The notes below the pieces were generated by a model. That model worked only from the letters and a program-made list of their open reading frames with translations. It was not told the DNA's origin and searched no databases. A stretch of DNA of 64,000 nucleotides from assembly GCA_965208105.1 (NCBI GenBank), contig OZ242318.1, positions 352,001 to 416,000 of the forward strand, given 5' to 3'. Both the position numbers and the translations under genes were made by a program. The stretch is from Candidatus Latescibacterota bacterium. GTDB lineage: Bacteria; Latescibacterota; UBA2968; UBA8231. This document shows, piece after piece, positions 3,775 to 63,526 of this stretch. Every line of letters starts with the position of its first letter. The first letter of the stretch is position 1.

Positions 3775-3979
3775 GCCAGGGGTCCGGCAGCCTTTGGTGC
3801 CTGCTCCACTGCAAACAGGATCGAGAGAGAGCCTGACCGGGTCCCCGATTGCACTGCGAACCCGGGATCCGGTTTGCCGTGAAATCACCGGAATAATATA
3901 TTCACAGGCGGATTCTGAAGGCGAATTCCTCCCTGGGCATCACCATGAGGGCTGGAATTTGCAACAATTTCCCCGTGGA

Positions 3980-4333
3980 ATGGATATTTTCTCGCGTATT
4001 TTCCAGATAGTCAGGTCCAGCCTGAATCGCGGGGAAGAAGCGCATTGGGAGCGGACTGGTTGGCCATCCGATGATGCCGGCACCGACTCGAGATTCAAGC
4101 ACAAGCGCCAGGTCGACCCACAACTCGCAGGGTACTATGCCAACCTGGAGATTCCTTACGGGTCCGATCTGGTGATGGTCCGCAGGGCCTGGAAGAGGCA
4201 GTTAAAGAAGTATCATCCGGACCTGCACGCCGAGAACCCGGAGAAGCGCCAGTTGGCCAACGAGCTTACGGTCGAGCTGACCAGGGCCTACCAGGAAATA
4301 GAACGAGCACTCACCCAAAAGGAGAAGCGCTGA
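3980..4333 (+). CDS. small J-domain (DnaJ-like) co-chaperone with N-terminal amphipathic helix
   Basis: YYANLEIP...VRRAWKRQLKKYHPD...LTRAYQEI (HPD motif); start placed at the in-frame ATG 3980. Confidence 0.85.
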   Translation: MDIFSRIFQIVRSSLNRGEEAHWERTGWPSDDAGTDSRFKHKRQVDPQLAGYYANLEIPYGSDLVMVRRAWKRQLKKYHPDLHAENPEKRQLANELTVELTRAYQEIERALTQKEKR

Positions 4334-4337
4334 AGCC

Positions 4338-4736
4338 ATGTCCGATCATTTCGATCAAGTCAAGGGATATGTCCTGGAACTGGATCTGCAGATTGAGGAG
4401 GAGATCGCAGCCGAGGAGATCCTCGTCGTCAACGATCACGAGCGTGGTATCCAGAATCTGGTCATCGACTGCGAGGACGAGGTTCTCGTGCTCGAGCAAC
4501 TCATCCTCAAACTGGATCCCGCTGCCGGGGACCAGGTATGCAGGCGCATTCTGCAAATCAATCGGGAACTCGTCTACGGCGCATTCGTCCTCGACGAGGA
4601 AGGCGATACCCTGATCTACCGCAATACCCTGGCCCTGGAGAATCTCGATTTGAACGAACTCGACAGCACAATCAACGCCCTCAGTCTCGGCTTGGCTGAA
4701 AACGGAGCGGAACTCCTCGCATTCGCCCAAAAATAA
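4338..4736 (+). CDS. CesT/Tir (YbjN-like) type III-chaperone-fold protein
   Basis: acidic 132 aa; 'ILQINRELVYGAFVLDE...IYRNTLALENLDLNEL'; adjacent to pspA. Confidence 0.75.
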   Translation: MSDHFDQVKGYVLELDLQIEEEIAAEEILVVNDHERGIQNLVIDCEDEVLVLEQLILKLDPAAGDQVCRRILQINRELVYGAFVLDEEGDTLIYRNTLALENLDLNELDSTINALSLGLAENGAELLAFAQK

Positions 4737-4748
4737 GGAAGGGAAACC

Positions 4749-5456
4749 ATGTCGGGTATTTTTCAACGCTTGTTCAAAACCGGGCAGGCCGAAGCTCACG
4801 CCCTGGTCGACAAATTGGAGGATCCCATCAAGATAAGCGAACAGGCGATTCGCGATTTGCGCGGGGACTTGCAGGAGAGCCTCAAGAGCCTCGCCGAAGT
4901 CAAGGGCATCGCCATCCGGATGAACAAGGAGGCAGAAGACAGCAAGCGCCTGGCCGCGGACTACGAACGCAAGGCCATGTTGCTTCTGCAAAAAGCCCAG
5001 AACGGGGAGATGGAAGCAACAGAGGCGGAACGTCTGGCGAGGGAGTCCCTCGCGCGCAAGGAGGAGGCCGCCGCGAGGGCTCTCGAGTCCTCTCAACAAG
5101 CTCAGGTGCAGGAGGAAATGGTGTCCAAGCTGCAGAGCAACACCAACGACCTCAAGTCCAAGGTTGCCTCCTATGAAAATGACCTGGTAATGCTGAAGGC
5201 TCGCGCCAAGACGGCCAACGCCACCCGCAAGATCAATCAGCGATTGTCCAAAGTCGATTCCAGAGGAACGGTGAGTCTTCTCGAACGGATGAAGGAGAAG
5301 GTGGAGGAGCAGGAAGCTCTGGGTCAGGCCTACGGAGAGATGGGCGACTCTACCGGTTCAATCGACGAAGAAATCAACAAGGCCCTGGCCGGAGGTTCGC
5401 AGGCCAAAGCCGATGATTCTCTGGCACAACTCAAAGCAAAGATGGGAATGAAGTAG
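4749..5456 (+). CDS. pspA: PspA/IM30 (ESCRT-III superfamily) protein
   Basis: MSGIFQRLF...LEDPIK..EQAIRDL, long coiled coil, LKARAKTA, C-terminal LAQLKAKMG. Confidence 0.93.
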   Translation: MSGIFQRLFKTGQAEAHALVDKLEDPIKISEQAIRDLRGDLQESLKSLAEVKGIAIRMNKEAEDSKRLAADYERKAMLLLQKAQNGEMEATEAERLARESLARKEEAAARALESSQQAQVQEEMVSKLQSNTNDLKSKVASYENDLVMLKARAKTANATRKINQRLSKVDSRGTVSLLERMKEKVEEQEALGQAYGEMGDSTGSIDEEINKALAGGSQAKADDSLAQLKAKMGMK

Positions 5457-5477
5457 GCATTCTCTCCCGGTTCCACC

Positions 5478-7154
5478 ATGCATTTGCTGACCCGCAGGCG
5501 GTTTTTACGTCTTCTGGCCGCCGGCAGTGGGGTGCCCGTCCTGCCATCCTGCCATTCGAAGGCGATCCCACCTTCCATCCTTGACATTCCGGGCAGAATC
5601 GTCAATCCCTCCCCCATCCCCGCGCATCTGATGCGCACGGAACATACCTGGGAGAATTTTCCTCGGCCTGCGGGCCCAGCTTACGATGTGGTGATCGTAG
5701 GGGGAGGCGTGTCGGGCTTGTGCGCCGCCTGGAAATTGCGAAGGGCCGGTGTAGACAGAATTCTCCTGCTGGAGCTGGAGGGAGAACTGGGCGGGACCTC
5801 CATCGCCGCTTCTAGCCGCGGCATCGCGTACCCCTGGGGAGCTCACTACATCAACATTCCGCCGGCAGAGGCCGATTGTGTCCACGAGGTCCTGCAGGAC
5901 CTGGGAATCATCGAGGGCTACGATGCGCGGGGCCTCCCCCTAATCGGTCCACAGCATTTTCTGCGCTGGCCGCACGAGCGCCTGTTCAAGGAGGAAGAGT
6001 GGAGATTGGGCCTGGATCCATTCGCCGAAGCTGACCAAGAGGCACGGGATATTCTTCAGGCCTTTGAAGACGACATGCTCCGCTGGACCCTCTACAGGGG
6101 AAAAGACGGGCGCAGAGCGTTTGCCATGCCGTTGCTGTACAGTTCGAGGGATTCTTCGGTGAGGCAGCTGGATAGAATTACCATGGCTGATTACCTGCGG
6201 TCCAGAGGCTGGAAGTCCAGGCTTCTGGACTGGTTGGTCGATTATGCCTGCCGCGACGACTACGGCAGCCTGAGCACCCAGGTTTCGGCCTGGGCGGGAA
6301 TCCATTACTTCGCCTGCCGGTTTTACGACTATCGCCTTCGCGAGGAGTACCCGGCGGACACCTTGACCTGGCCCGAAGGCAACGCCTACCTGGTGGGAGG
6401 GTTGAGCCGCCAGCTGGAGGCGGACCAGTTCCGCACAGGAGTCCTGGTGCTTCGAATTGAGCAGGAGGCGGACGGGGTGCGGTTGGGTTACGCGGACCTC
6501 GACGCCGGTACCTTTGGTTCAATCCTCGGCAAAAGCATCATCTATGCCGGCAAGTTGTACACGGCCCCCTTTGTGGTTGCGGGCCTGCCCTCCGAATCGC
6601 GCCGGGCGATGTCCTCCGCAACCTACAGCCCCTGGCTGGTCGCCGCGGTTCACCTGATGCGGCCCCTTCACGAGGCGGAGGTTGGGATGGCCTGGGACAA
6701 TATAATGTTCGACAGCCCTTCCGTGGGATACGTGGCGGCCAGCCATCAGAACCCTCGAAAACGATCCTCGACCGTACTGGTTTACTACCTGCCATTCGTG
6801 GAGGAGGTGGACAGGGCCCGCCGGGAACTGCTCCACAGGGACCAGCGCTACTGGAGCGCGCGAGTTGCGCAGGATTTGCTGGCTGCCCACCCCGACCTGG
6901 AGGAACTGATCGAGCGCATCGACATCTATCGCTGGGGACATGCCATGATGCGCCCCGGCCCGGGGTGCATCTGGGGCGAGGAGAGCCTCCTCCGTCGACG
7001 TCCGTTCGGGGGAGTTTTTTTCGCTTCCTGCGACGCCACCGGATTGCCCTTGTTCGAGGAAGCGTGCTTCGGCGGCATACGGGCTGCCGAACAGAGCATG
7101 GACCACCTCGGTCTCTCCTATGAGACATCTTTGAAGGGAATGCCCGGTGGCTGA
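5478..7154 (+). CDS. Tat-exported FAD-dependent oxidoreductase (amine oxidase-like), possible lipoprotein
   Basis: TRRRFL Tat motif, LPSC lipobox-like, IVGGGVSGL..A, WGAHY, CRDDYG, RWGHAM, LPLFEEA. Confidence 0.85.
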   Translation: MHLLTRRRFLRLLAAGSGVPVLPSCHSKAIPPSILDIPGRIVNPSPIPAHLMRTEHTWENFPRPAGPAYDVVIVGGGVSGLCAAWKLRRAGVDRILLLELEGELGGTSIAASSRGIAYPWGAHYINIPPAEADCVHEVLQDLGIIEGYDARGLPLIGPQHFLRWPHERLFKEEEWRLGLDPFAEADQEARDILQAFEDDMLRWTLYRGKDGRRAFAMPLLYSSRDSSVRQLDRITMADYLRSRGWKSRLLDWLVDYACRDDYGSLSTQVSAWAGIHYFACRFYDYRLREEYPADTLTWPEGNAYLVGGLSRQLEADQFRTGVLVLRIEQEADGVRLGYADLDAGTFGSILGKSIIYAGKLYTAPFVVAGLPSESRRAMSSATYSPWLVAAVHLMRPLHEAEVGMAWDNIMFDSPSVGYVAASHQNPRKRSSTVLVYYLPFVEEVDRARRELLHRDQRYWSARVAQDLLAAHPDLEELIERIDIYRWGHAMMRPGPGCIWGEESLLRRRPFGGVFFASCDATGLPLFEEACFGGIRAAEQSMDHLGLSYETSLKGMPGG

Positions 7155-8682
7155 CCGGGGCAAGGCAGAGGCCTCCGGCTTTGGCCTGTTCCTGTTGCTG
7201 GCTGCCGTGTTCGCAGCAGCGGCGTGCGCCATCGTCTACGAGTTGCTCATCGGCAGCACCTCTTCGTATTTCCTCGGCGACAGCGTCGAGCAGTTCTCGC
7301 TGACCATTGGGTTCTTTCTCTTCGCCATGGGGGTTGGATCCTGGCTTTCGCGCTTGATCAGGCAGGAGTTGCTGGCAAGATTCATTGCCCTGGAAATCTG
7401 GTTGGGGTTGATAGGGGGGTGCGCCGTGGCAGTTCTCTACCTGGCATACGGGCACAGCTCCCATTATCGCTACTGGATGCTGATGCTCATAGTGGCTATC
7501 GGCGTCCTCGTCGGCCTCGAGGTGCCCCTCCTGTCCCGGATTCTGCGCAGCTACGGCTCGTTGCGCACCACCTTGTCCACGGTGCTGTCCATGGATTATT
7601 TCGGTGCTCTGGCTGCGGCTCTCCTGTTCCCCTACCTTCTCATGCCCCTCCTGGGAGGGTTCCATACTTCGGTCCTCGCCGGCTGGGTCAACCTGTCCGC
7701 GGGGGTCGCGGTTCTGTTGTGCTTCAGGACCAGGATCAGAACTTCGACCCGTCGCTGGCTGATGGTGCAGGGTGGAGGAGCGGGGTTGGTACTGGCGGGG
7801 CTTTGGGCAGGTTCCGGCCCCCTTCTGGACCGCTGGGAGAGTAATTTCTACGCCGACCGCATTGTCCACAGCGAGCAGTCGCCGTACCAGAAGATCGTCC
7901 TGACTCTCTGGCGCGATGACCTGCGGCTGTTTCTGGACGGCCATCTGCAATTTGCCTCAGTGGACGAGCATCGCTACCACGAGGCCCTGGTGCATCCTGC
8001 CCTGGCTGTGGCCCTCAATCGAGAGCGGGTGCTGGTCATCGGGGGAGGGGATGGCCTGAGCGTTCGCGAGATTCTCAAGTATTCGGACGTTTCCAGTATC
8101 GACCTCGTGGATCTGGACCCGGCGGTGACCACCTTGAGCCGGCGCAACCCACATCTTACCCGACTGAATAAAAATGCCCTCAATGGGCCCAATGTGCGTA
8201 TCTTTAACGAGGATGGGTTCACCTTTCTGCAGAGGGAGCACACTCCCTATGGGGCAATTGTCATCGATCTGCCGGACCCGCGCGAGGAAGCTCTGGCCAA
8301 GCTTTATTCGGTGGAGGGGTATCGGCTGTGTCTCCGCCACCTGGCTCCAGGCGGGGTGCTGGTCACCCAGGGGACGAGTCCATATTTTACCCGAGAGGCC
8401 TATTGGAGCATTGCGGCTACCCTGGAAGAAGCTGGATTCGAGGTTTGTTCCTACCACGTTCACGTCCCCTCATTCGGCGAGTGGGGATTCCATCTTGCCA
8501 GCCGGGACTGGGTGGATCTGAAACAGGTTGAATTCGAGGTGCCACGGCGTTTTTTGCGGAAGGAACTGCTGGAAGGCATGCTTTTCTTCGACCCGGACAT
8601 GAGCCGGGTAAAGGTGGAGTCCAATCGGCTTGACAGGCCATCGCTGGCTCGATTTTATCGCAGCGGATGGGAGCGCTGGTAG
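7147..8682 (+). CDS. speE: polyamine aminopropyltransferase (spermidine synthase-like) with N-terminal multi-TM domain
   Basis: about 7 TM segments, then SPYQ, LFLDGHLQF, DEHRYHEALVHP, IGGGDGL..RE, DLPDP, VPSFGEWGF. Confidence 0.92.
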   Translation: MADRGKAEASGFGLFLLLAAVFAAAACAIVYELLIGSTSSYFLGDSVEQFSLTIGFFLFAMGVGSWLSRLIRQELLARFIALEIWLGLIGGCAVAVLYLAYGHSSHYRYWMLMLIVAIGVLVGLEVPLLSRILRSYGSLRTTLSTVLSMDYFGALAAALLFPYLLMPLLGGFHTSVLAGWVNLSAGVAVLLCFRTRIRTSTRRWLMVQGGGAGLVLAGLWAGSGPLLDRWESNFYADRIVHSEQSPYQKIVLTLWRDDLRLFLDGHLQFASVDEHRYHEALVHPALAVALNRERVLVIGGGDGLSVREILKYSDVSSIDLVDLDPAVTTLSRRNPHLTRLNKNALNGPNVRIFNEDGFTFLQREHTPYGAIVIDLPDPREEALAKLYSVEGYRLCLRHLAPGGVLVTQGTSPYFTREAYWSIAATLEEAGFEVCSYHVHVPSFGEWGFHLASRDWVDLKQVEFEVPRRFLRKELLEGMLFFDPDMSRVKVESNRLDRPSLARFYRSGWERW

Positions 8683-8685
8683 TAT

Positions 8686-9249
8686 TTGTCTCAGGTATCG
8701 GAGGTGAAGATCGTGAGATTGAAGAAATTTTGGGGAAGGCAGGATGACGAGGTCTACCAGGAACACACCTTGAGCACCATGGAGAAGGGTGACCTGGTGG
8801 ATTTCGACTTGAAAACCTGGCAAGTCATAGGTTATAATACATACGACTACGATGGGTTCATTACCCGGGAGTGGGAATTGCGCTGCGCCGATGACGTGCG
8901 CTTCCTGGAAGCGGCCGAGGATGACGGCAGGGTTGAATGGACCTGGACCCGGAGTATTGATCTACAACAGATCGAAGAGGATGTCAGCGGAACGATTATC
9001 GAGAAAGACGACCCACCTCCGGACGTGAGTTTTGAAGGCAGGCGCTATGAGGCGGTGGAGAGCAGCGCCGGGCTCCAGCGCAGAGGCGGCGACGAGCGGG
9101 ACCGCGAGTTCGTCAGCTGGAACTACGAATCCAAGGAGGGGCGATTGCTGTTCATACTCCAGTGGGGAGAGCGGGACTTCGCCGCCTACGAGGGCGCGTG
9201 CGTCGAGGAGTACCAATTCACCGATATTCTTCCTGGCGGGAAAGTATGA
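8686..9249 (+). CDS. DUF4178 domain protein
   Basis: acidic; GD.V....W.V, EW.L, FLE, F.SW.Y pattern; typical speE/DUF350 context. Confidence 0.75.
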   Translation: MSQVSEVKIVRLKKFWGRQDDEVYQEHTLSTMEKGDLVDFDLKTWQVIGYNTYDYDGFITREWELRCADDVRFLEAAEDDGRVEWTWTRSIDLQQIEEDVSGTIIEKDDPPPDVSFEGRRYEAVESSAGLQRRGGDERDREFVSWNYESKEGRLLFILQWGERDFAAYEGACVEEYQFTDILPGGKV

Positions 9250-9258
9250 GGTGATAGA

Positions 9259-9990
9259 ATGGTGAGAAATCCATCTTTGCGGGGAATTGCGCTGGTAGCT
9301 GCCCTGGGTCTGTTGGGATGTGGTGGCAGCCGGGATCCTGTACGCGATCTCACTCGGGACTTGAACCGCTATCCCGAGTTTCTGCTCATCGTAGAGGATT
9401 TGCGGGTGGAGGAAGGCTTCTTTCCGGACTATTTCCTCCGATTTAAAACTCTGACGGCATCGGGCCAGCGGATGGCTGGCCGGGACACCCTGATCTACCA
9501 GGAGCGCACCACGGATTGGCATGAGGTGAGCGAAGATGTATTTGGCCGCTACGAGCATTATGTGGGCATGGTTGTGGCTTCCAAGGGCAAGGATGGACGC
9601 CACACCGATGTCCGGCAGGCTCATCCTCCAGGGTATCAGTACGTGGGAAATCCGAGCTACGGGTTCTGGGGTGGAGGAGGATTCTGGCAGTTTTACGGGC
9701 AGTATGCCCTCATGCGTGATTTGATGGGAGGATGGCGGGTGAATCGGGACGATTACCGGGACTACCGCCGCAATTACGAACGTGGAAGACCCTATCACGG
9801 ACCTGTCCAGAGAGGCCGGCCGGCCTTTGGCTCAAGAGGAACGGTGACCGAAAAGACGAAACCCGGGTTCTACCAGCGCAATCGTCAGCGATTGCGTTCA
9901 GGACGCTATGGTTTTGCCAACAAGGCCCAAAGCCGCATGGGTCGCACCGGCTCGAGTTGGGGCCGAGGCTACGGTTTTCGAGGAAAGTAA
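9259..9990 (+). CDS. lipoprotein with Gly/Arg/Tyr-rich tail ending in GK
   Basis: lipobox LLGC; PPGYQYVGNPSYGFW, FWQFYGQYALM; tail ...GRGYGFRGK. Confidence 0.8.
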   Translation: MVRNPSLRGIALVAALGLLGCGGSRDPVRDLTRDLNRYPEFLLIVEDLRVEEGFFPDYFLRFKTLTASGQRMAGRDTLIYQERTTDWHEVSEDVFGRYEHYVGMVVASKGKDGRHTDVRQAHPPGYQYVGNPSYGFWGGGGFWQFYGQYALMRDLMGGWRVNRDDYRDYRRNYERGRPYHGPVQRGRPAFGSRGTVTEKTKPGFYQRNRQRLRSGRYGFANKAQSRMGRTGSSWGRGYGFRGK

Positions 9991-10018
9991 ACCATCTTTC
10001 GCATCAGGGAGGCTCACG

Positions 10019-10864
10019 ATGGAGGAATACCTGATTCCCATGGCTTGGTCCGCTGTCTATATCCTGGAAACCTTTCTGCTCCTGTGGCTGGCAAAGTTCG
10101 CCTACGTCAGCCTGTATCGGCGGGTGGACTTGAAAAGGGAGATTTTCGACCGGCGCAACTACGCCCTTGCCACGGCAACCACAGGCTACCTGTTCGGAGT
10201 GATCGTCGCATTCGGCGGCGTGCTGGCGGGGCCTTCGGCCGGCTGGAAAGCGGACCTGCTTGGGATCGCCCTCTACGGCATTGTCTCGATTGCGCTTCTG
10301 CTGGTAGCCAGCTTTTTGTCCGAGAAGGTGTTGCTGCCCCATTTCGACAACACTCGCGAGGTTGTTCAGGACCGCAACATGGGCACGGCATTCGTCGAGG
10401 CGGGCATGCACATCGCCAACGGGCTGATCATCCTGGCCATCGTGCAAGGGGATGGTCCCTGGTGGATTGGATTGGTGTTCTGGGGACTTGCTCAAATTAT
10501 TCTGATTCTGGTCGCCTTGCTCTACGAGGTTTCCACAAGGCACAGTATCCACGCGGAGCTGGAGCGCGATAATGCTGCCGTGGGCCTGGCCTTTTGCGGG
10601 GCTCTGGTCGGGATGGGCAATATCATCAGCCTCGCAGTCGCTGGTGATTTTCTGGGATGGAAAGCAAGTCTGCTGGGCTTTGCCAGCTATGCGATTTTCG
10701 GCCTTATCATGCTGCAAATTGTCAAGAGGTTGACGGATATGCTGCTGGCACCAGGAGTGAAGCTGGGGAAGGAACAGAGCGATGACCAACCCAGCGTGGG
10801 GGCGGGTCTGTTCGAGGCCTTTGGCTATGTCGGAGCTTCCATGCTGCTGGTCTGGGCCCTGTAG
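10019..10864 (+). CDS. DUF350 (YjfL-like) membrane protein, duplicated domain
   Basis: repeated EI..rN.A motifs (REIFDRRNYALA, REVVQDRNMGTA, AELERDNAAVGL); about 8 TM; SD GGGAGG. Confidence 0.85.
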   Translation: MEEYLIPMAWSAVYILETFLLLWLAKFAYVSLYRRVDLKREIFDRRNYALATATTGYLFGVIVAFGGVLAGPSAGWKADLLGIALYGIVSIALLLVASFLSEKVLLPHFDNTREVVQDRNMGTAFVEAGMHIANGLIILAIVQGDGPWWIGLVFWGLAQIILILVALLYEVSTRHSIHAELERDNAAVGLAFCGALVGMGNIISLAVAGDFLGWKASLLGFASYAIFGLIMLQIVKRLTDMLLAPGVKLGKEQSDDQPSVGAGLFEAFGYVGASMLLVWAL

Positions 10865-10925: not shown

Positions 10926-11257
10926 TCAATTCTGCCTCTCCCGAGTGAGTTCTTCATCCAACCATTTGACGTAGGCCTCAAAGCCGGCGATCAGGGGAAC
11001 GGCCAGGATCTCGGGTACCTGGTAGGGATGGATCTCGCGGATGGCCTTCTCCAGAGTTTCGTACAGGTCCCTGCGGGTCTTGGCTGTACACTTCCACTCC
11101 CTGGCTTCTTCTACCTTGCCTCCCACCAGTATGTGCTCGTGACGGGTCCCTCGATCTGAACGCATGCCGCCAGTCTCTTCTCTACCAATTTCCGAGCGAT
11201 TTCTCGGGCTTCCTCCTCACTGCCTGCCGTCGTTCCCACTTCGATGTACTGGGTCAT
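10926..11257 (-). pseudogene. cutA: divalent-cation tolerance protein CutA, interrupted by a 1-nt frameshift
   Basis: MTQYIEVGTT...LVEKRLAACVQIEGPVTSTYWWE in one frame; GKVEE.EW...HPYQVPEI..Y.KW in another. Confidence 0.85.
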
Positions 11258-12263
11258 TTTTCCCTTCTCCTTTCTTGCTTACACTCCAGAATTGCCATAG
11301 CAGGGCAGGTGCGCCCAGGGCAAGGTAGGTGAGATTGGCTATCGCGTGGACCACGGTGGCGCAGGCCATGGCGGCGGTTTCGGGCACCTGGTAGAGCAGG
11401 TGTAATGCGTCTCCAAAAAAGAGGTGATAAGAGCCGACCCCCGCGGGCGTGGGAACAATGATCCCGATCGTGGAAATGGCCATGACGACCATGGTCGCGG
11501 AGGCGCCAAGGTCAAAGGAACGAATGAAACCGAAGCTGAGGAAGGATCCGTAGATTATCAGCAGGTAACACAGGTTGAGAAGGATGGAGCTGACAATTAT
11601 TTCCAGACAGGCGGTTGGCCTTCCGAGAGCGGAGAGGCCTTGCAAAAAGGTCTCGAGGACCCGGGCGGACCGGTTCGCAATTCTCGAAGATATCTTCCCG
11701 AGCAGGCGGGGGATGATCCTCAAGGCGTGATTTCTGTAGATGGAGACCAGGGCAAGAAGTGCCAGGACCAGGATACAGCCGGCGAGAACGACCAGGCTGG
11801 CCGGTTCCAACCAGGGAAAGGCTTGATCGATCCTCGACCGGAGCAGCAGCAACGACGCCCCTACCAGGGCGATTAAACAAAAGAGATCGATGATGCGTTC
11901 CACCACGACCGTTGCAAGCACCGCGCTTATGCTGGCACCACGGGACCAGTTGAGGCTCCAGATGCGCAATGCTTCTCCGGACCGCGGAATGACGAGATTG
12001 GCTGTGTAGCAAATGGCCAGGGCCTGAAAGGCAGCAAGCACAGGTATGCTGGCAAAAGGACGCATGAGCACGATCCACCGCCAGGCGCGCAGGCCAAGGG
12101 ACAGGATGGTAGTGAAGACCAGGGCCAGAACCCAGAAAGGGGAGACGCGTCCCATCGCTGCCCACAAGGCAGCTGGCTCGATACCCTTGAAGGCCCAGTA
12201 GAGGAAGAGACCCATCAGTGCCAGGCTGATGAGGTATCTTCCAATTTTAAACGGGGAAATCAA
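11217..12263 (-). CDS. lysylphosphatidylglycerol synthase TM-domain (flippase-like) protein
   Basis: LRAWRW, ANLVIPRSGE, VVERIIDL, PTPAGVGSYH. Confidence 0.85.
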   Translation of the reverse strand: MISPFKIGRYLISLALMGLFLYWAFKGIEPAALWAAMGRVSPFWVLALVFTTILSLGLRAWRWIVLMRPFASIPVLAAFQALAICYTANLVIPRSGEALRIWSLNWSRGASISAVLATVVVERIIDLFCLIALVGASLLLLRSRIDQAFPWLEPASLVVLAGCILVLALLALVSIYRNHALRIIPRLLGKISSRIANRSARVLETFLQGLSALGRPTACLEIIVSSILLNLCYLLIIYGSFLSFGFIRSFDLGASATMVVMAISTIGIIVPTPAGVGSYHLFFGDALHLLYQVPETAAMACATVVHAIANLTYLALGAPALLWQFWSVSKKGEGKNDPVHRSGNDGRQ

Positions 12264-28044: not shown

Positions 28045-28121
28045 GGGCTATTAGCTCAGTTGGATAGAGCGCCAGTCTCCGGAACTGGAGGTCGCAGGTT
28101 CGAATCCTGCATAGCTCACCA
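28045..28121 (+). tRNA. tRNA-Arg(CCG)
   Basis: cloverleaf; anticodon arm CCAGT-CTCCGGA-ACTGG; GTTCGAATCC; 3' CCA. Confidence 0.95.
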
Positions 28122-28145
28122 TTAATTCCTCAGAGAGAATTGGGT

Positions 28146-28223
<78 letters not shown>

Positions 28224-28290
28224 TTTTTTTCAATAAATGGGCTACAGCAATCCACTGCTAGCCCATTTCCTTCATCAAGCCCTCCAATAT

Positions 28291-28368
28291 CGGGGTGTAG
28301 CGCAGCCCGGCTAGCGCACCTGCTTCGGGAGCAGGGGGTCGGCGGTTCGAATCCGCCCACCCCGACCA
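28291..28368 (+). tRNA. tRNA-Pro(CGG)
   Basis: CCTGC-TTCGGGA-GCAGG; GTTCGAATCC; 3' CCA. Confidence 0.95.
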
Positions 28369-28462
28369 ATATTACTTCCTGTTAATTGTAAAGTTAAGTA
28401 ATCTGTAATCCCGCCTTTGCGCCGTCTTGTCCGCTGGTGAAATTATCCGTGTTGCCAATCCA

Positions 28463-29407
28463 ATGCCGCAAAGATCGTCCAATATTATTCTGATCATTGC
28501 CGGACCAACAGCCGTTGGGAAGACCGGGATTGGAATCGAGATAGCCAGACTTCTGCACGGGGAGATTATTTCGGCCGATTCCCGGCAAATCTACCGCCAT
28601 ATGGACATCGGTACTGCAAAACCCAGCGTGGGGGACCTGGAAATGGCGAGGCATCATTGTATCAATATCAGGAATCCGGATGAGACTTACAGTGCTGGAC
28701 ACTTTGGCAGGGATGCACGCAGCTTGATTCTTGAACTGAATGGTAGAGGAATCCTTCCCATAATCGTGGGCGGATCAGGGCTTTATCTGCAGGCAACCCT
28801 GGACGGTTTGTTTGAAGAGAGTGCCGATTACGGGTCAATACGTTCAAGGTTGAAGCAACGGCTTGCCCGTGACGGATTACAGGCACTGTACGCGGAACTG
28901 GGAAAACTGGATCCGGTAGCCCACTCACGCCTTTCCGCCAACGACACCCAGCGAGTCCTGCGTGCCTTGGAGGTAGCCCTTGGAGGAACCAACCTTTCCT
29001 CCCACTGGGGGGAAGAATCTATTGGGCCGCTAGACTGTACTCCACTGGCGTTCTGCATGGAATTGGAGCGTGACAGGCTTTATAACCGCATTGACCGACG
29101 TGTTGACTTCATGATGAGAAATGCCCTCGTCGACGAGGTGGAAAGACTGGCGGAAATGGGCTATGGCAGGGATTGTCCAGGGCTGGATACGGTAGGATAC
29201 AGGGAAATACTGGACTACCTGGAAGGCAAATGCTCTCTGAGTACTGCGGTGGACCTGATCAAACACCGGTCCAGACGCTATGCCAAGCGCCAGTTGACCT
29301 GGTTTCGCAAGGACCGCCGGTTGCGCTGGCTCGATTTGGGTAGGTGGGGGAGGAAGGGCGTATTGTCCAGGATCGCGACTCAATACCACCTGCAAGGCAA
29401 TTTTTGA
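28463..29407 (+). CDS. miaA: tRNA dimethylallyltransferase
   Basis: GPTAVGKT, SADSRQIYR.MDIGTAKP, VGGSGLY, YAKRQLTWF. Confidence 0.97.
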   Translation: MPQRSSNIILIIAGPTAVGKTGIGIEIARLLHGEIISADSRQIYRHMDIGTAKPSVGDLEMARHHCINIRNPDETYSAGHFGRDARSLILELNGRGILPIIVGGSGLYLQATLDGLFEESADYGSIRSRLKQRLARDGLQALYAELGKLDPVAHSRLSANDTQRVLRALEVALGGTNLSSHWGEESIGPLDCTPLAFCMELERDRLYNRIDRRVDFMMRNALVDEVERLAEMGYGRDCPGLDTVGYREILDYLEGKCSLSTAVDLIKHRSRRYAKRQLTWFRKDRRLRWLDLGRWGRKGVLSRIATQYHLQGNF

Positions 29408-29436
29408 TTTGCATACCCACTGGGATGTTTCCTCTA

Positions 29437-29465
29437 TTGACAGTTTAAGATAGGTCGATTATTTT
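29437..29465 (+). promoter_or_regulatory. sigma70-type promoter upstream of tRNA-Gly
   Basis: TTGACA-17 bp-TATTTT in an AT-rich stretch. Confidence 0.6.
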
Positions 29466-29519
29466 GAACATTGCCTTAAGTTAGAATCAATAGAGTTCGA
29501 ATACAATTCACTCAAGGGA

Positions 29520-29594
29520 GCGGGAGTAGTTCAGGGGTAGAACGCAAGCTTCCCAAGCTTGATGTCGCGGGTTCGACTCCCGTCTCCCGCTCCA
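29520..29594 (+). tRNA. tRNA-Gly(CCC)
   Basis: GCGGGAG acceptor; CAAGC-TTCCCAA-GCTTG; GTTCGACTCC; TCCA. Confidence 0.95.
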
Positions 29595-60410: not shown

Positions 60411-62117
60411 TCAGCTGCTTCCGAATATTTCCAGAAAGCGGTTTTCGGCTTCCACGCTGCCGATGAGTATCATTTCTCTACCTTGGGGCAGGGGCAGGGT
60501 CGGGTCAGGATTGATTTCCATTTGATCGCCATCGACGATCGCGATCACGGTACATCTGGTTTCCCTGCGAATTGATGAATTGGCCAAGCTCTTACCGACC
60601 AGGGAGGGAGGGATTTTTACCTTGAACACATCCAACCCTTCGTCCACCATCAGAATATCGCTGCGCTCGAGCAAATTGAAAATGGCGTTGGCTCCCATCG
60701 AGGCATATGACATGACGAAGTCCGCCCCGGCTCGATGAAGTGTCGAAACATTCCTTTCCAGTGTAGCCCGGCCGATGATTTGAATATCGGGCCTCAGGTG
60801 CCGGCAGTAAATCGTGAGGTAGATATTCGTCTCATCTTCGCGGGTCGTAATGAGCACTGTAGGGGCCTCAGTGATCCCTGCCTCCTTCAGAACCTCCAGG
60901 TCCGCCGCATTTCCTAGCAGGTACTTTTCAGTATTCTGAACGCGCTCCGGCAATTGCTCAACAATGAGGTAGTCAGTCCCCTGCTCCTCGAGAGTCCTGC
61001 CCGCTGCCCTGCCAACCCGGCCGCCGCCAATAATTATTACGGGAACATCAGAGGTATTGTCGGCGCGAAATTGCTGGTTGTAATTTTCCAGCTGGTTCTG
61101 GGAACCCGCCAGCACTAACATTGCACCCGGACCGACGAGAGTCTCGGGCCTGGCAGTTTTGAACTCCCCCCGTTCCCAGACCCCCACAACCGTCACTCCG
61201 ACTTTTCTGCGCAATCCGATTTCGGCGAGGGTCTGGCCGACAAGGGATGTCCCGGCCGCGGTGGCTTTGGCAATCAGGAGATGGCTGAATTGGCCTATCG
61301 GCCGTGCCGGGGCGCGGCCACCTCTTGCATGCCGCGCCAGAGATTGGCCCATCATCTCGCCCAGTTGGAGCACCCGGGAACAGCCTGCAAGTTCGAGGAT
61401 GTCCACAGAAGCAGGGTCCCGCGCGGTGGCGACGATTGGTACAGCTTCCGAGGTTTCTCGTACTGTAAATGCCAAACTGGTGTTGGTCGCGTCTGTGGAG
61501 GTCATGGCCACCAGTGCGGCCTTTTCTATCTGAACTTTGCGATAGGTTTCAGGATTGTCCAGGTCGCCGACCACCACCCTCAATCCCAGGTCGTACAGGC
61601 GCGACGCCTCCAATGGATCCGCAACCACCAAAACGTAAGGGTAACGGTACTGGGTTAATTTGTGAATCAAAGCACTTGTGACCGGATCGTAATACGTGAT
61701 CACAACATGGCCATGGGTGTCCTCGGAGAGTTTCCGGGGAATCCGGGAAGCGGACTGAGTTTCCATCCACGGCAAGTAGAAAAATTGAATGAATGTGAAA
61801 GGCAGAATGATCAGGATGAAGGCCACACCGGACAGGAGGACAACCATGGAGAACACACGACCCCAATCCTCAGTGAAGACAATATCTCCATATCCCAGGG
61901 TCGTCATGAGGGTCAGGGTCCAGTAGACCCCGGTAAACCAGCTGAAATCGCGCCCCTCATGAGCCATGAGAAGGTGAAAAAGGACGCTGTAAATACCCAC
62001 CAAAATGACCAAAGTCCCAAGCAACCAAAGCAATACCTTGAGTTTTTGGCGATTGGTGGGGTTGCGCGAAAAGCCGAGCAGATGGGGAACGAGATGTTTC
62101 ACGAGCTCGAACGGCAT
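60411..62117 (-). CDS. potassium channel protein (2 TM + pore) with tandem RCK/TrkA domains; start uncertain
   Basis: MTTLGYGD selectivity filter; IIGGGRVG; TrkA_N and TrkA_C repeats. Confidence 0.9.
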   Translation of the reverse strand: MPFELVKHLVPHLLGFSRNPTNRQKLKVLLWLLGTLVILVGIYSVLFHLLMAHEGRDFSWFTGVYWTLTLMTTLGYGDIVFTEDWGRVFSMVVLLSGVAFILIILPFTFIQFFYLPWMETQSASRIPRKLSEDTHGHVVITYYDPVTSALIHKLTQYRYPYVLVVADPLEASRLYDLGLRVVVGDLDNPETYRKVQIEKAALVAMTSTDATNTSLAFTVRETSEAVPIVATARDPASVDILELAGCSRVLQLGEMMGQSLARHARGGRAPARPIGQFSHLLIAKATAAGTSLVGQTLAEIGLRRKVGVTVVGVWERGEFKTARPETLVGPGAMLVLAGSQNQLENYNQQFRADNTSDVPVIIIGGGRVGRAAGRTLEEQGTDYLIVEQLPERVQNTEKYLLGNAADLEVLKEAGITEAPTVLITTREDETNIYLTIYCRHLRPDIQIIGRATLERNVSTLHRAGADFVMSYASMGANAIFNLLERSDILMVDEGLDVFKVKIPPSLVGKSLANSSIRRETRCTVIAIVDGDQMEINPDPTLPLPQGREMILIGSVEAENRFLEIFGSS

Positions 62118-62154
62118 CGATTGAGGGATGGAGTCCAGGGACGAGTCATGCAAT

Positions 62155-63102
62155 CTAACCTTTGGTCATCCATGGGGTTGTTGAGAGGATTTTGGATTGA
62201 GCTGGAAGACTTTGCACGCCGTTCAACTTGAAGATATTTCGAAAGACCAGGATCGAACCGCATGCTCCCGGAACCAGGACGTTGAGCGCAAAAATGAGGA
62301 TAGCCGAATTAAAGGCCGCAAGCGGATCAGCTTCGAGCATGCCGAGTACCAGCACGGCAGCCCCTTCGCGGACTCCCAGGTCCATGAAGCTTATGGGAAG
62401 AATGGACTTCAACCCAAAAATCACCGGGATTCCCCATAAGGCAATTCCAGGGACAGGTCCCCAGCTGCGAACCAGGATGTAGAACTGTGTGAAAAGGACC
62501 AGGTTGAAGAGAATTGACCAAGTCAACCCCCTTGCCCAAACTCCCCCGGGAGCTCGTTCGACCGCCTTCCAGACCCGGTGTATCCAACCATCCCCGCTCC
62601 CCGTCCCGGCCTTCGCTCCGGCCAAGGCCAAAATCACCAGTGATGCCAACAGGAGGACAAGACCAGGTTTGGCCCCGGGAAATATCACCCAAAGCCCCAC
62701 CCATGCCGCGGCAAGAGTTGCTGCCAGCGAACAGAGGCGGTCCACCCCTGCTGCCCCCACCCAGGTCGCGCGGTCTCCAACAAGAAATATCCCTCTTCCC
62801 AGCTCTCCCAATCGTCCCGGGGACACGAGGCCGAGGGCGAAACCAATCAGCAGGGAGTGCATCCCGTCCCCCCAGGTAGTCTGCGGACGATAGTGCCTGA
62901 GAAGCTGCTTCCATTTCACCCACTGTATTCCAAGTCCCAAGAGGGCAAGAAGCCCTGCCAAGGCTATCCACCCCGGGTCCATTTGTTTCCAGGCTTCCCA
63001 GAGACGGCCTGGCTTCAGATAGACCCCCAAGCTTCCCAGGAAGATGGCGGCAAGACCTATTTTCAGAATGGGAAGCCAGTGACCGGTTTGAAGAAGTTTC
63101 AC
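62155..63102 (-). CDS. lysylphosphatidylglycerol synthase TM-domain protein; start uncertain
   Basis: KWKQLL, SPGRLGELGR, DR, PIS..DLGVRE. Confidence 0.85.
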   Translation of the reverse strand: MKLLQTGHWLPILKIGLAAIFLGSLGVYLKPGRLWEAWKQMDPGWIALAGLLALLGLGIQWVKWKQLLRHYRPQTTWGDGMHSLLIGFALGLVSPGRLGELGRGIFLVGDRATWVGAAGVDRLCSLAATLAAAWVGLWVIFPGAKPGLVLLLASLVILALAGAKAGTGSGDGWIHRVWKAVERAPGGVWARGLTWSILFNLVLFTQFYILVRSWGPVPGIALWGIPVIFGLKSILPISFMDLGVREGAAVLVLGMLEADPLAAFNSAILIFALNVLVPGACGSILVFRNIFKLNGVQSLPAQSKILSTTPWMTKG

Positions 63103-63526
63103 AGGCAGGCTGCGGACGAGGGAATGAGGTGAGAGAGAAAGTCGCCGAAAAATCAGCGTAGAACACAGAAGATTCCCACCCGGCAAGCGCTCGTAAGGTA
63201 TAGCGGTCATGCGCTCTTCAGAGCACGAGCGAGAAGGCATCGAAAGCGGCAATGGAGGAGGGTGGACCCGCTCCCGCCTTACCAGACTGGAATGCCTCAA
63301 AAATTTGCTTCAGCCCGATGCTCCGTGGAACCAGAAGCATTAATGCGGCTAGGAAAAATAGATGGGAGCCTTTCCGAAGTCAAGCAATTACCTTCTTCCC
63401 TGTGAGTCGTCGGCTATCCGGCCTGGTCGCATGGGTAATGATTGCCAGGTTCCCCGTTCCATTCGCATCCGGTAATCCATTCAATTTCCAAGGGGAATGG
63501 ACAAAGGGAGATATCCAGACCGGGCC

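Follow-up and report, generated by a model that had tools for sequence, protein, structure and literature searches.

How polymers of ESCRT-III-like proteins are turned over in bacteria which have no ATPase of the Vps4 type is an open question. Ravi et al. 2024 state that the way in which PspA homologues lacking an AAA+ ATPase control their assembly is not known (PMC11237479), and according to a review from 2026 high conservation in bacteria seems to be confined to the ESCRT-III genes themselves (PMC13051332). This question is raised in a concrete form by a locus of a Candidatus Latescibacterota bacterium, located within a stretch of 64,000 nucleotides (contig OZ242318.1, positions 352,001 to 416,000 of the forward strand) which is called the window in the following and in whose numbering positions are given. 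Here, an open reading frame (ORF) at 3980..4333 on the plus strand, including the stop codon, encodes a protein of 117 amino acids that begins MDIFSRIFQIVRSSLNRGEEA and precedes a pspA gene in the same cassette. At its N-terminus the protein carries an amphipathic helix (MDIFSRIFQIVRSSLN); a disordered linker leads from there to the J-domain, which occupies the C-terminus and has its HPD motif intact. On balance, if narrowly, we consider it probable that this is a class-C J-protein which shares the membrane targeting of PspA and brings DnaK to PspA assemblies. This reading builds on the architecture of the protein, its conservation, the in-register likeness of its N-terminus to helix alpha0 of PspA, the amphipathicity of this segment and the linkage of the gene to pspA.

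The C-terminal part of the protein (residues 47-117, 4118..4330 on the plus strand) was recognized as a J-domain by independent matches. Pfam DnaJ (PF00226) covers residues 52-106 with an E-value of 6.2e-7 and 29.9 bits, compared to a cut-off of 27.8 bits. The residues H79, P80 and D81 (nucleotides 4214-4222) are invariant in all 110 J-family sequences of our alignment A2, and the HPD motif was present in 150 out of 150 representatives of the family. In a structure predicted by AlphaFold2 (AF2) from the 110-sequence alignment, residues 50-110 show a predicted local distance difference test (pLDDT) score of about 88-91. The top Foldseek matches in the PDB are J-domains as well, including the DnaK-bound J-domain 5nro_B, with root-mean-square deviations of 1.3-2.2 Å over about 54 columns; because of the small size of the domain the E-values are only 0.02 or higher. 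Judged by these matches, the gene product belongs to the J-domain (Hsp40) family. NCBIfam contains no model specific to this J family. The best match in this collection is DjlA (NF006948), to which only the J-domain aligns; with 24.4 bits versus a cut-off of 162 an equivalog-level match is not reached, and an identification as DjlA was rejected.

The linker comprises residues 17-46 (4028..4117, plus strand). It is predicted to be disordered, with pLDDT values below 50 at residues 16-28 and 30-42, and across the family (alignments A1 and A2) it varies in sequence as well as in length and shows no consensus. Much longer linkers between helix and J-domain were observed in Chlorobi-type orthologues, e.g. 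those encoded at 7701..8210 of locus L010 and at 7797..8213 of locus L033 (170 and 139 amino acids, respectively). A first-pass annotation of the window had described a linker followed by a J-domain with intact HPD, which fully agrees with our results.

Of particular relevance is the N-terminal segment (residues 1-16, 3980..4027, plus strand). For its comparison with PspA we used, besides A2, an alignment of 31 neighbouring PspA proteins (A3) and one of 13 E. coli-type PspA proteins (A4). The latter is shallow, as the search for homologues of E. coli PspA gave only enterobacterial PspA, being at least 86% identical among the 120 matches listed; the N-termini of Vipp1 were read from PDB alignments only. 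The columns of the J family in A2 follow the profile M-[SDE]-[ILV]-[FL]-x-R-[LI]-[FY]-x-I-[LAI]-[RK]-[AS]-[NEQ]-[LIV]-N, in which R6 is invariant (110 of 110 sequences) and M1 is found in more than 90%. The corresponding N-termini are MGIFSRFADIVNANIN in E. coli PspA and GLFDRLGRVVRANLN and GLFDRIKRVVSSNLN in solved Vipp1 chains. Aligning A2 to A4, hhalign returned a single match, placing residues 1-21 of the J family on residues 1-21 of PspA (P 1.5e-4, probability 51%), and in this match the window protein is 43% identical to E. coli-type PspA. With A3, residues 2-21 were placed on residues 3-22 (P 3.8e-4, probability 36%). The respective scores of 31.5 (A4) and 30.4 (A3) compare with maxima of 20.5 and 20.3 in 150 column shuffles each; the PspA alignments in reversed order, used as a control, scored 11.4 and 10.9. 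The PspA-like character which the first-pass annotation had attributed to the N-terminus is thus borne out by profile comparison, the matches being in register and beyond all shuffles.

A matrix derived from 38 J N-termini ranked the N-terminus of E. coli PspA first of 404,709 positions from 1,329 unrelated long ORFs. The N-termini of the neighbouring PspA proteins scored a median of 11.6 bits with this matrix, corresponding to a background fraction of 2.7e-5. Likewise, a motif rule of seven positions, at least six of which had to agree, recognized 121 of 150 diverse representatives at the N-terminus, so that the segment originally noticed in a single protein proved to be conserved among its orthologues. 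Eight further representatives comply with the rule deeper in their sequence and probably have mis-called starts. In the background, 22 of 1,368 ORF N-termini comply, 10 of these 22 being themselves PspA or J proteins. The best reading of these sequences is that the helix represents a copy of alpha0 of PspA/Vipp1, either by descent or by close mimicry. No trace of the ESCRT-III core, the hairpin alpha1-alpha5, was detected: neither the whole J-protein nor its N-terminal pieces gave a match to PspA_IM30, and nothing aligns past residue 21. By this comparison the J-protein is placed outside the PspA family and holds only the alpha0-like segment.

On the Fauchere-Pliska scale, a hydrophobic moment of 0.61 was calculated for residues 2-16. 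Of 2000 shuffles, 0.9% attain this value, and residues 2-19 of E. coli PspA are comparable with a moment of 0.51. One face of the helix holds I3, F4, I7, F8, I10, V11 and L15. The amphipathic character already claimed in the first-pass annotation is therefore confirmed by calculation. PspA attaches to negatively charged or stressed membranes by means of alpha0. In Synechocystis PspA, alpha0 is an amphipathic helix binding to anionic membranes, and M1, R6, R9 and K12 contact the lipid headgroups (PMC12358876). At the corresponding positions the J family of A2 carries R in 100% (position 6), R or K in 44% (position 9) and R or K in 83% (position 12) of the sequences; the window protein has R6, Q9 and R12. 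The features characterizing alpha0, i.e. an amphipathic N-terminal helix with conserved Phe/Arg and basic positions, are accordingly all predicted for the J-protein.

The family is large. A word-indexed search gave 61 relatives of 64-205 amino acids at E<=1e-3. A profile search of a library of representatives at 50% identity yielded 3692 proteins at E<=1e-3, 841 at E<=1e-10 and 51 at E<=1e-30; the best 150 representatives are mostly 105-150 amino acids long and match from profile position 1. Longer fused forms were not encountered among 147 candidates at E<=1e-3, which is weak evidence. Family members bear generic names only, e.g. 'J domain-containing protein'. An odd, repetitive relative is P0306, a protein of 827 amino acids whose match to the family profile is split into 11 short pieces, each of them from the surroundings of the HPD motif.

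In the window, the J gene is followed after 4 nucleotides by a gene for a CesT_Tir_1 (PF22550) chaperone-like protein (4338..4736, plus strand, Pfam E-value 2.3e-44) and, another 12 nucleotides downstream, by the gene for a PspA/IM30 protein (PF04012), a bacterial ESCRT-III protein (4749..5456, plus strand, E-value 1.4e-42). This PspA starts MSGIFQRLFKTG and matches solved Vipp1/PspA chains at E-values of about 1e-17. We scanned genome contigs with the family alignment and obtained 80 loci. Full-length orthologues are encoded at 37 of them (L001-L037), which were used for the counts; the remaining 43 (L038-L080) match in the J-domain only, represent ordinary larger J-proteins and were left out. 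A PspA gene lies on the same strand, 128-697 nucleotides (median 466) after the stop codon of the J gene, in 33 of these 37. Since the contigs of L004 and L035 end too early, this corresponds to 33 of 35 evaluable loci. Of 36 orthologue loci evaluable in this respect, 33 have a CesT_Tir_1 gene immediately after the J gene, and in 33 loci such a gene separates J from PspA; in L036, PspA comes next to J and a CesT gene is missing. The loci span about ten phyla and belong to Latescibacterota, Gemmatimonadota, Planctomycetota, Nitrospinota, Chlorobi and other Bacteroidota, Calditrichota, Acidobacteriota, Tectomicrobia, Nitrospirae and Bdellovibrionales. Genes of polyamine metabolism as well as DUF350 and DUF4178 genes are often found near the cassette, their place and strand vary, and they may be absent. 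From gene order across these loci, the triad of J, CesT and PspA genes is a stable unit headed by the J gene. The PspA called neighbouring in the first-pass annotation is consequently the next but one, CesT_Tir_1 lying in between, while its position downstream on the same strand and its tight linkage hold across about ten phyla.

From these sequence features and by analogy we infer that the J-protein binds membranes, that it recruits and activates DnaK, that PspA is its client, and in which direction the reaction runs, be it assembly or disassembly. The alpha0-like helix of about 16-20 residues would put the J-domain on membrane surfaces coated by PspA. Following a disordered linker of about 30 residues, the J-domain would switch on the ATPase of the housekeeping Hsp70 (DnaK), which in turn might remodel PspA assemblies, most likely by disassembly and recycling. 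DnaK would thus supply the energy, as does Vps4 for ESCRT-III, HSP70B-CDJ2-CGE1 for VIPP1 and auxilin-Hsc70 for clathrin. That DnaK may act as the disassembly ATPase in place of Vps4, as already proposed in the first-pass annotation, is suggested by the architecture of the protein, the gene linkage and the precedent of CDJ2/HSP70B and VIPP1. A more far-reaching version, which we regard as tentative and rather doubtful, is that the three-gene cassette represents a self-contained cycle of assembly and disassembly. The J-protein would then be an auxilin-like uncoating factor, recruited by its transplanted alpha0 to the same membrane cue or lattice site as PspA, DnaK would be the counterpart of Vps4 in bacteria without a PspA-linked AAA+ ATPase, and CesT_Tir_1 would hold the released PspA monomers. 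A complex prediction for PspA (A3) and the J-protein (A2), run without controls, gave an ipSAE of 0.00 in both runs and a mark of 0.32 and counts neither for nor against binding.

Several results weigh against a J-protein that follows PspA to the membrane. The hhalign probabilities are only 36-51%, owing to the shortness of the aligned segment. Pfam PspA_IM30 was not found at E<=10 in the 40-residue N-terminal pieces of any of 15 family members, this segment being too short for hmmscan and its filters. The AF2 helix at residues 3-15 is of low confidence (pLDDT 53-57). With the reverse matrix, derived from the N-termini of the neighbouring PspA proteins, the window protein scores 8.4 bits (background fraction 3.2e-5) and the median J N-terminus about -1 bit (background fraction 1.1e-3), in a test in which some anchors on doubled Arg residues were misplaced. 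Given this weak reverse score, the J helix is, in terms of sequence, nearer to the canonical alpha0 of PspA/Vipp1 than to alpha0 of its own neighbouring PspA.

The start codon is ambiguous in the window, too. ATG 3980 is preceded by a poor Shine-Dalgarno-like sequence; a better one (GAGGG at 3947-3951, with a 7-nucleotide spacer) belongs to an alternative in-frame TTG at 3959..3961 on the plus strand. A start at this TTG would add 7 residues ending in Pro-Arg-Gly, and two close homologues (P0001 and P0003) are called from the equivalent position. In the 110 aligned J sequences Met occupies position 1 in 94%, the helix begins at residues 1-3 family-wide, and in at least 18 orthologue loci the Met of the motif is the first start codon after an upstream in-frame stop. 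Because the helix starts the protein across the J family, ATG 3980 is the likely start and TTG 3959 a possible one. The start assumed in the first-pass annotation is hence favoured by the family consensus and left with a competitor in the window itself.

Further points of this kind concern the gene neighbourhood. Two loci, L013 and L025, have a J gene and no PspA within about 8 kb. Moreover, a scan with an Hsp70 signature motif found no Hsp70 gene in the window or in the 37 loci, so the partner would have to be the housekeeping DnaK. Specialised J-proteins are usually encoded without an adjacent Hsp70 gene. Finally, the yjfI-yjfJ operon of E. coli is devoid of a J gene, indicating that the J-protein is not essential to dyads of CesT-like and PspA proteins in general. 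The two solitary orthologues (L013, 7941..8405, Anammoxibacter; L025, 4455..4835, Acanthopleuribacteraceae) also lack a CesT-like gene within about 8 kb. The L013 protein displays the most PspA-like N-terminus of all, MALFKRIIDIIQADISSRLDKLEN.

It might be that the protein is a generic membrane-tethered J-protein resembling DjlA, with an alpha0 likeness that is convergent. DnaK would then serve not PspA but membrane proteins at large, or those encoded in the operon (DUF350 and the fusion of membrane domain and spermine synthase). Amphipathic helices converge easily, the best NCBIfam match is DjlA with its likewise C-terminal J-domain, the cassette often adjoins genes for membrane proteins, and there are the two loci with a J gene and no PspA nearby. 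We nevertheless consider this explanation unlikely, as the resemblance is more than one of hydrophobic periodicity: the invariant Arg, F-x-R at the start, the A/S-N positions and the beginning at residue 1 all agree in register. In addition, it is PspA to which the gene is specifically linked (in 33 of 35 evaluable loci), whereas the genes for polyamine metabolism and DUF350 change place or are missing, and the match to DjlA amounts to 24 bits compared to a cut-off of 162. Conservation of the polar positions and a linkage that is specific to PspA also speak against a chance resemblance or a mis-called start, according to which the true N-terminus would be located elsewhere and the motif would be meaningless. 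This is extremely improbable despite the TTG at 3959 with its better Shine-Dalgarno-like sequence and the missing Pfam signal for PspA: the motif is N-terminal in 121 of 150 representatives, in at least 18 loci no possible start lies between the preceding stop and its Met, shuffles never approach the real hhalign score, and even from TTG 3959 the helix would lie only 7 residues from the N-terminus.

Two other explanations accept the likeness to alpha0 and assign it a different role. The helix could mimic alpha0 as a protein ligand, docking on an alpha0 receptor (CesT_Tir_1 or the PspA lattice) and not on lipid, and the J-protein could hand PspA over between an ATP-independent chaperone and DnaK. 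The conserved order of J, CesT_Tir_1 and PspA with short gaps (4 and 12 nucleotides in the window), the CesT-like gene in 33 of 36 loci and the binding of CesT-type chaperones to N-terminal segments of their clients (PMC11237479) are consistent with such a role, as is the contact of Vipp1 alpha0 with the rod wall (PMC12358876). It appears quite unlikely to us, however, considering that in L036 J and PspA occur together although no CesT-like gene is present, and that the conserved basic positions 6, 9 and 12 match lipid-contacting residues. Alternatively the J-protein might be a competitive regulator, its helix competing with alpha0 of PspA for a limited number of membrane-defect sites or capping the polymers, and its J-domain mainly serving the turnover of the regulator itself. 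The alpha0 likeness and the position ahead of PspA in the operon are all that point this way; the strict conservation of J-domain and HPD argues for a real co-chaperone of Hsp70 and nothing is specific for capping, which makes this role very improbable. A J-protein sharing the membrane targeting of PspA and recruiting DnaK to it is the explanation we prefer to all of these.

Downstream of pspA the operon continues on the plus strand with a gene for a flavin adenine dinucleotide (FAD) amine oxidase-like protein (5478..7154, Pfam Amino_oxidase, E-value 8e-14), followed by a fusion of a membrane domain and a spermine/spermidine synthase (7147..8682, Pfam Spermine_synth at residues 274-451, E-value 6.9e-35) and by a DUF4178 gene (8686..9249, E-value 1.5e-19). 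The next gene (9259..9990) encodes a conserved protein with no match in Pfam or NCBIfam; by its position it would be the Ctha_1186-type lipoprotein of the published operon discussed below, and homologues were found within the same cassette in 19 of 37 loci. The last gene (9908..10864) encodes a DUF350 membrane protein of the YjfL family (E-value 1.1e-41); its first ATG lies 83 nucleotides inside the preceding gene, which leaves the start uncertain. Orthologues have about 280 amino acids compared to 318 in the window, and the true start is probably further downstream. The amine oxidase gene, of which the available text of Ravi et al. makes no mention (PMC11237479), keeps its place between pspA and the synthase fusion in L002, L003, L005 and L009; in several Acidobacteriota loci it lies beside the synthase gene, on the opposite strand. 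Its presence suggests that the module covers oxidation of polyamines besides their synthesis.

A promoter-like site (TTGCCG-17-TATATT, 3874..3902, plus strand) precedes the J gene. As promoter and terminator scans were at chance level, with 1 such site versus 0.8 expected from shuffles, it is a weak candidate and marks a position, not evidence of function. An Rfam scan of the window detected four tRNAs only and no RNA family near the J gene. These tRNAs form a cluster at 28045..29591 adjoining miaA-like, mreB/mreC and nusA-infB-rbfA-truB-pnp genes; the chromosomal context is ordinary, and nothing around the cassette points to a mobile element. Two genes with MprF-like lysylphosphatidylglycerol-synthase transmembrane domains, related to lipid modification, are located at 11220..12263, just downstream of the PspA operon, and at 62158..63300, both on the minus strand. 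About 50 kb from the cassette, a potassium-channel-like gene (60414..62153, minus strand) encodes an ion channel domain and two TrkA-N/TrkA-C units. A ligand-gated K+ channel has been reported for a related class of PspA operons (PMC11237479).

Compared with known systems, most of the operon is familiar. Ravi et al. described a 'second major group' of CesT/Tir-PspA operons with genes for spermine synthase, DUF350, DUF4178 and a lipoprotein (PMC11237479), and the region 4338..10864 of the window reproduces CesT_Tir_1, PspA, the membrane-spermine synthase fusion, DUF4178 and DUF350. The difference lies in the J gene heading the cassette and in the amine oxidase gene, neither being described in the accessible parts of that paper; DnaJ, DnaK and Hsp70 do not occur in its main text, nor in one supplementary text, though others may exist. 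Literature searches turned up neither a J-protein encoded in a pspA operon nor one with an alpha0-like helix. The polyamine/PspA operon was already known (Ravi 2024, PMC11237479), and our addition to it would be a specialised J-protein whose targeting helix is a copy of that of the presumed client.

The yjfIJKL operon of E. coli, reported as a heat-tolerance operon (PMC12492005), is similar in combining CesT-like and PspA-family proteins with DUF350 and polyamine-related genes. It differs in having no J gene, yjfI being preceded by rlmB. BLASTP placed the window PspA closer to E. coli PspA (E-value 1.4e-9) than to YjfJ (E-value 1.6), and the CesT_Tir_1 protein gave no BLASTP match to YjfI. The dyad of the window should therefore not be called yjfI-yjfJ, and orthology to these genes was rejected.

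Among single proteins, alpha0 of the PspA/Vipp1 family (AHa in E. coli PspA) shares with the J-protein the start at residue 1, the amphipathicity, F4-x-R6, I10, A13-N14 and the basic residue 12; solved Vipp1 chains begin GLFDR(L/I)..VV(R/S)(A/S)NLN. The PspA family differs by its ESCRT-III hairpin (alpha1-alpha5), which is lacking in the J-protein. In E. coli DjlA, an N-terminal element fixes the C-terminal J-domain to the inner membrane, an arrangement like the one proposed here. This element is a transmembrane anchor, and the DjlA model is 267 positions long.

The closest parallels are functional. Auxilin with Hsc70 likewise combines targeting to a membrane coat, clathrin, with a C-terminal J-domain recruiting Hsp70 to dismantle this coat (PMC2830701). 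This is an analogy without homology beyond the J-domain, and auxilin binds the coat protein, whereas the helix of our J-protein looks lipid-binding. In plastids, Vipp1 has CDJ2 and Hsp70 as interaction partners, which take part in the disassembly of its polymers (PMC13051332). CDJ2-HSP70B-CGE1 with VIPP1 in Chlamydomonas and cpHsc70-1 with VIPP1 in Arabidopsis resemble the proposed system as cases of a dedicated J-protein/Hsp70 machinery implicated in assembly and disassembly of PspA-family polymers (PMC13051332, PMC12798727). CDJ2 differs in being eukaryotic and organellar, and the sections of PMC13051332 that deal with it report no alpha0-like targeting helix; the J-protein described here is bacterial, comprises 117 amino acids and is encoded in a pspA operon. 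Its comparison with CDJ2 is a functional one. A widespread J family with a PspA helix, heading a pspA cassette, suggests DnaK as the remodelling motor. With it, the question of what powers the turnover of bacterial ESCRT-III becomes directly testable with three small proteins. If true, it would show in a clean case how a co-chaperone has taken over the targeting helix of its client, and the CDJ2-HSP70B-VIPP1 link known from chloroplasts would extend to free-living bacteria.

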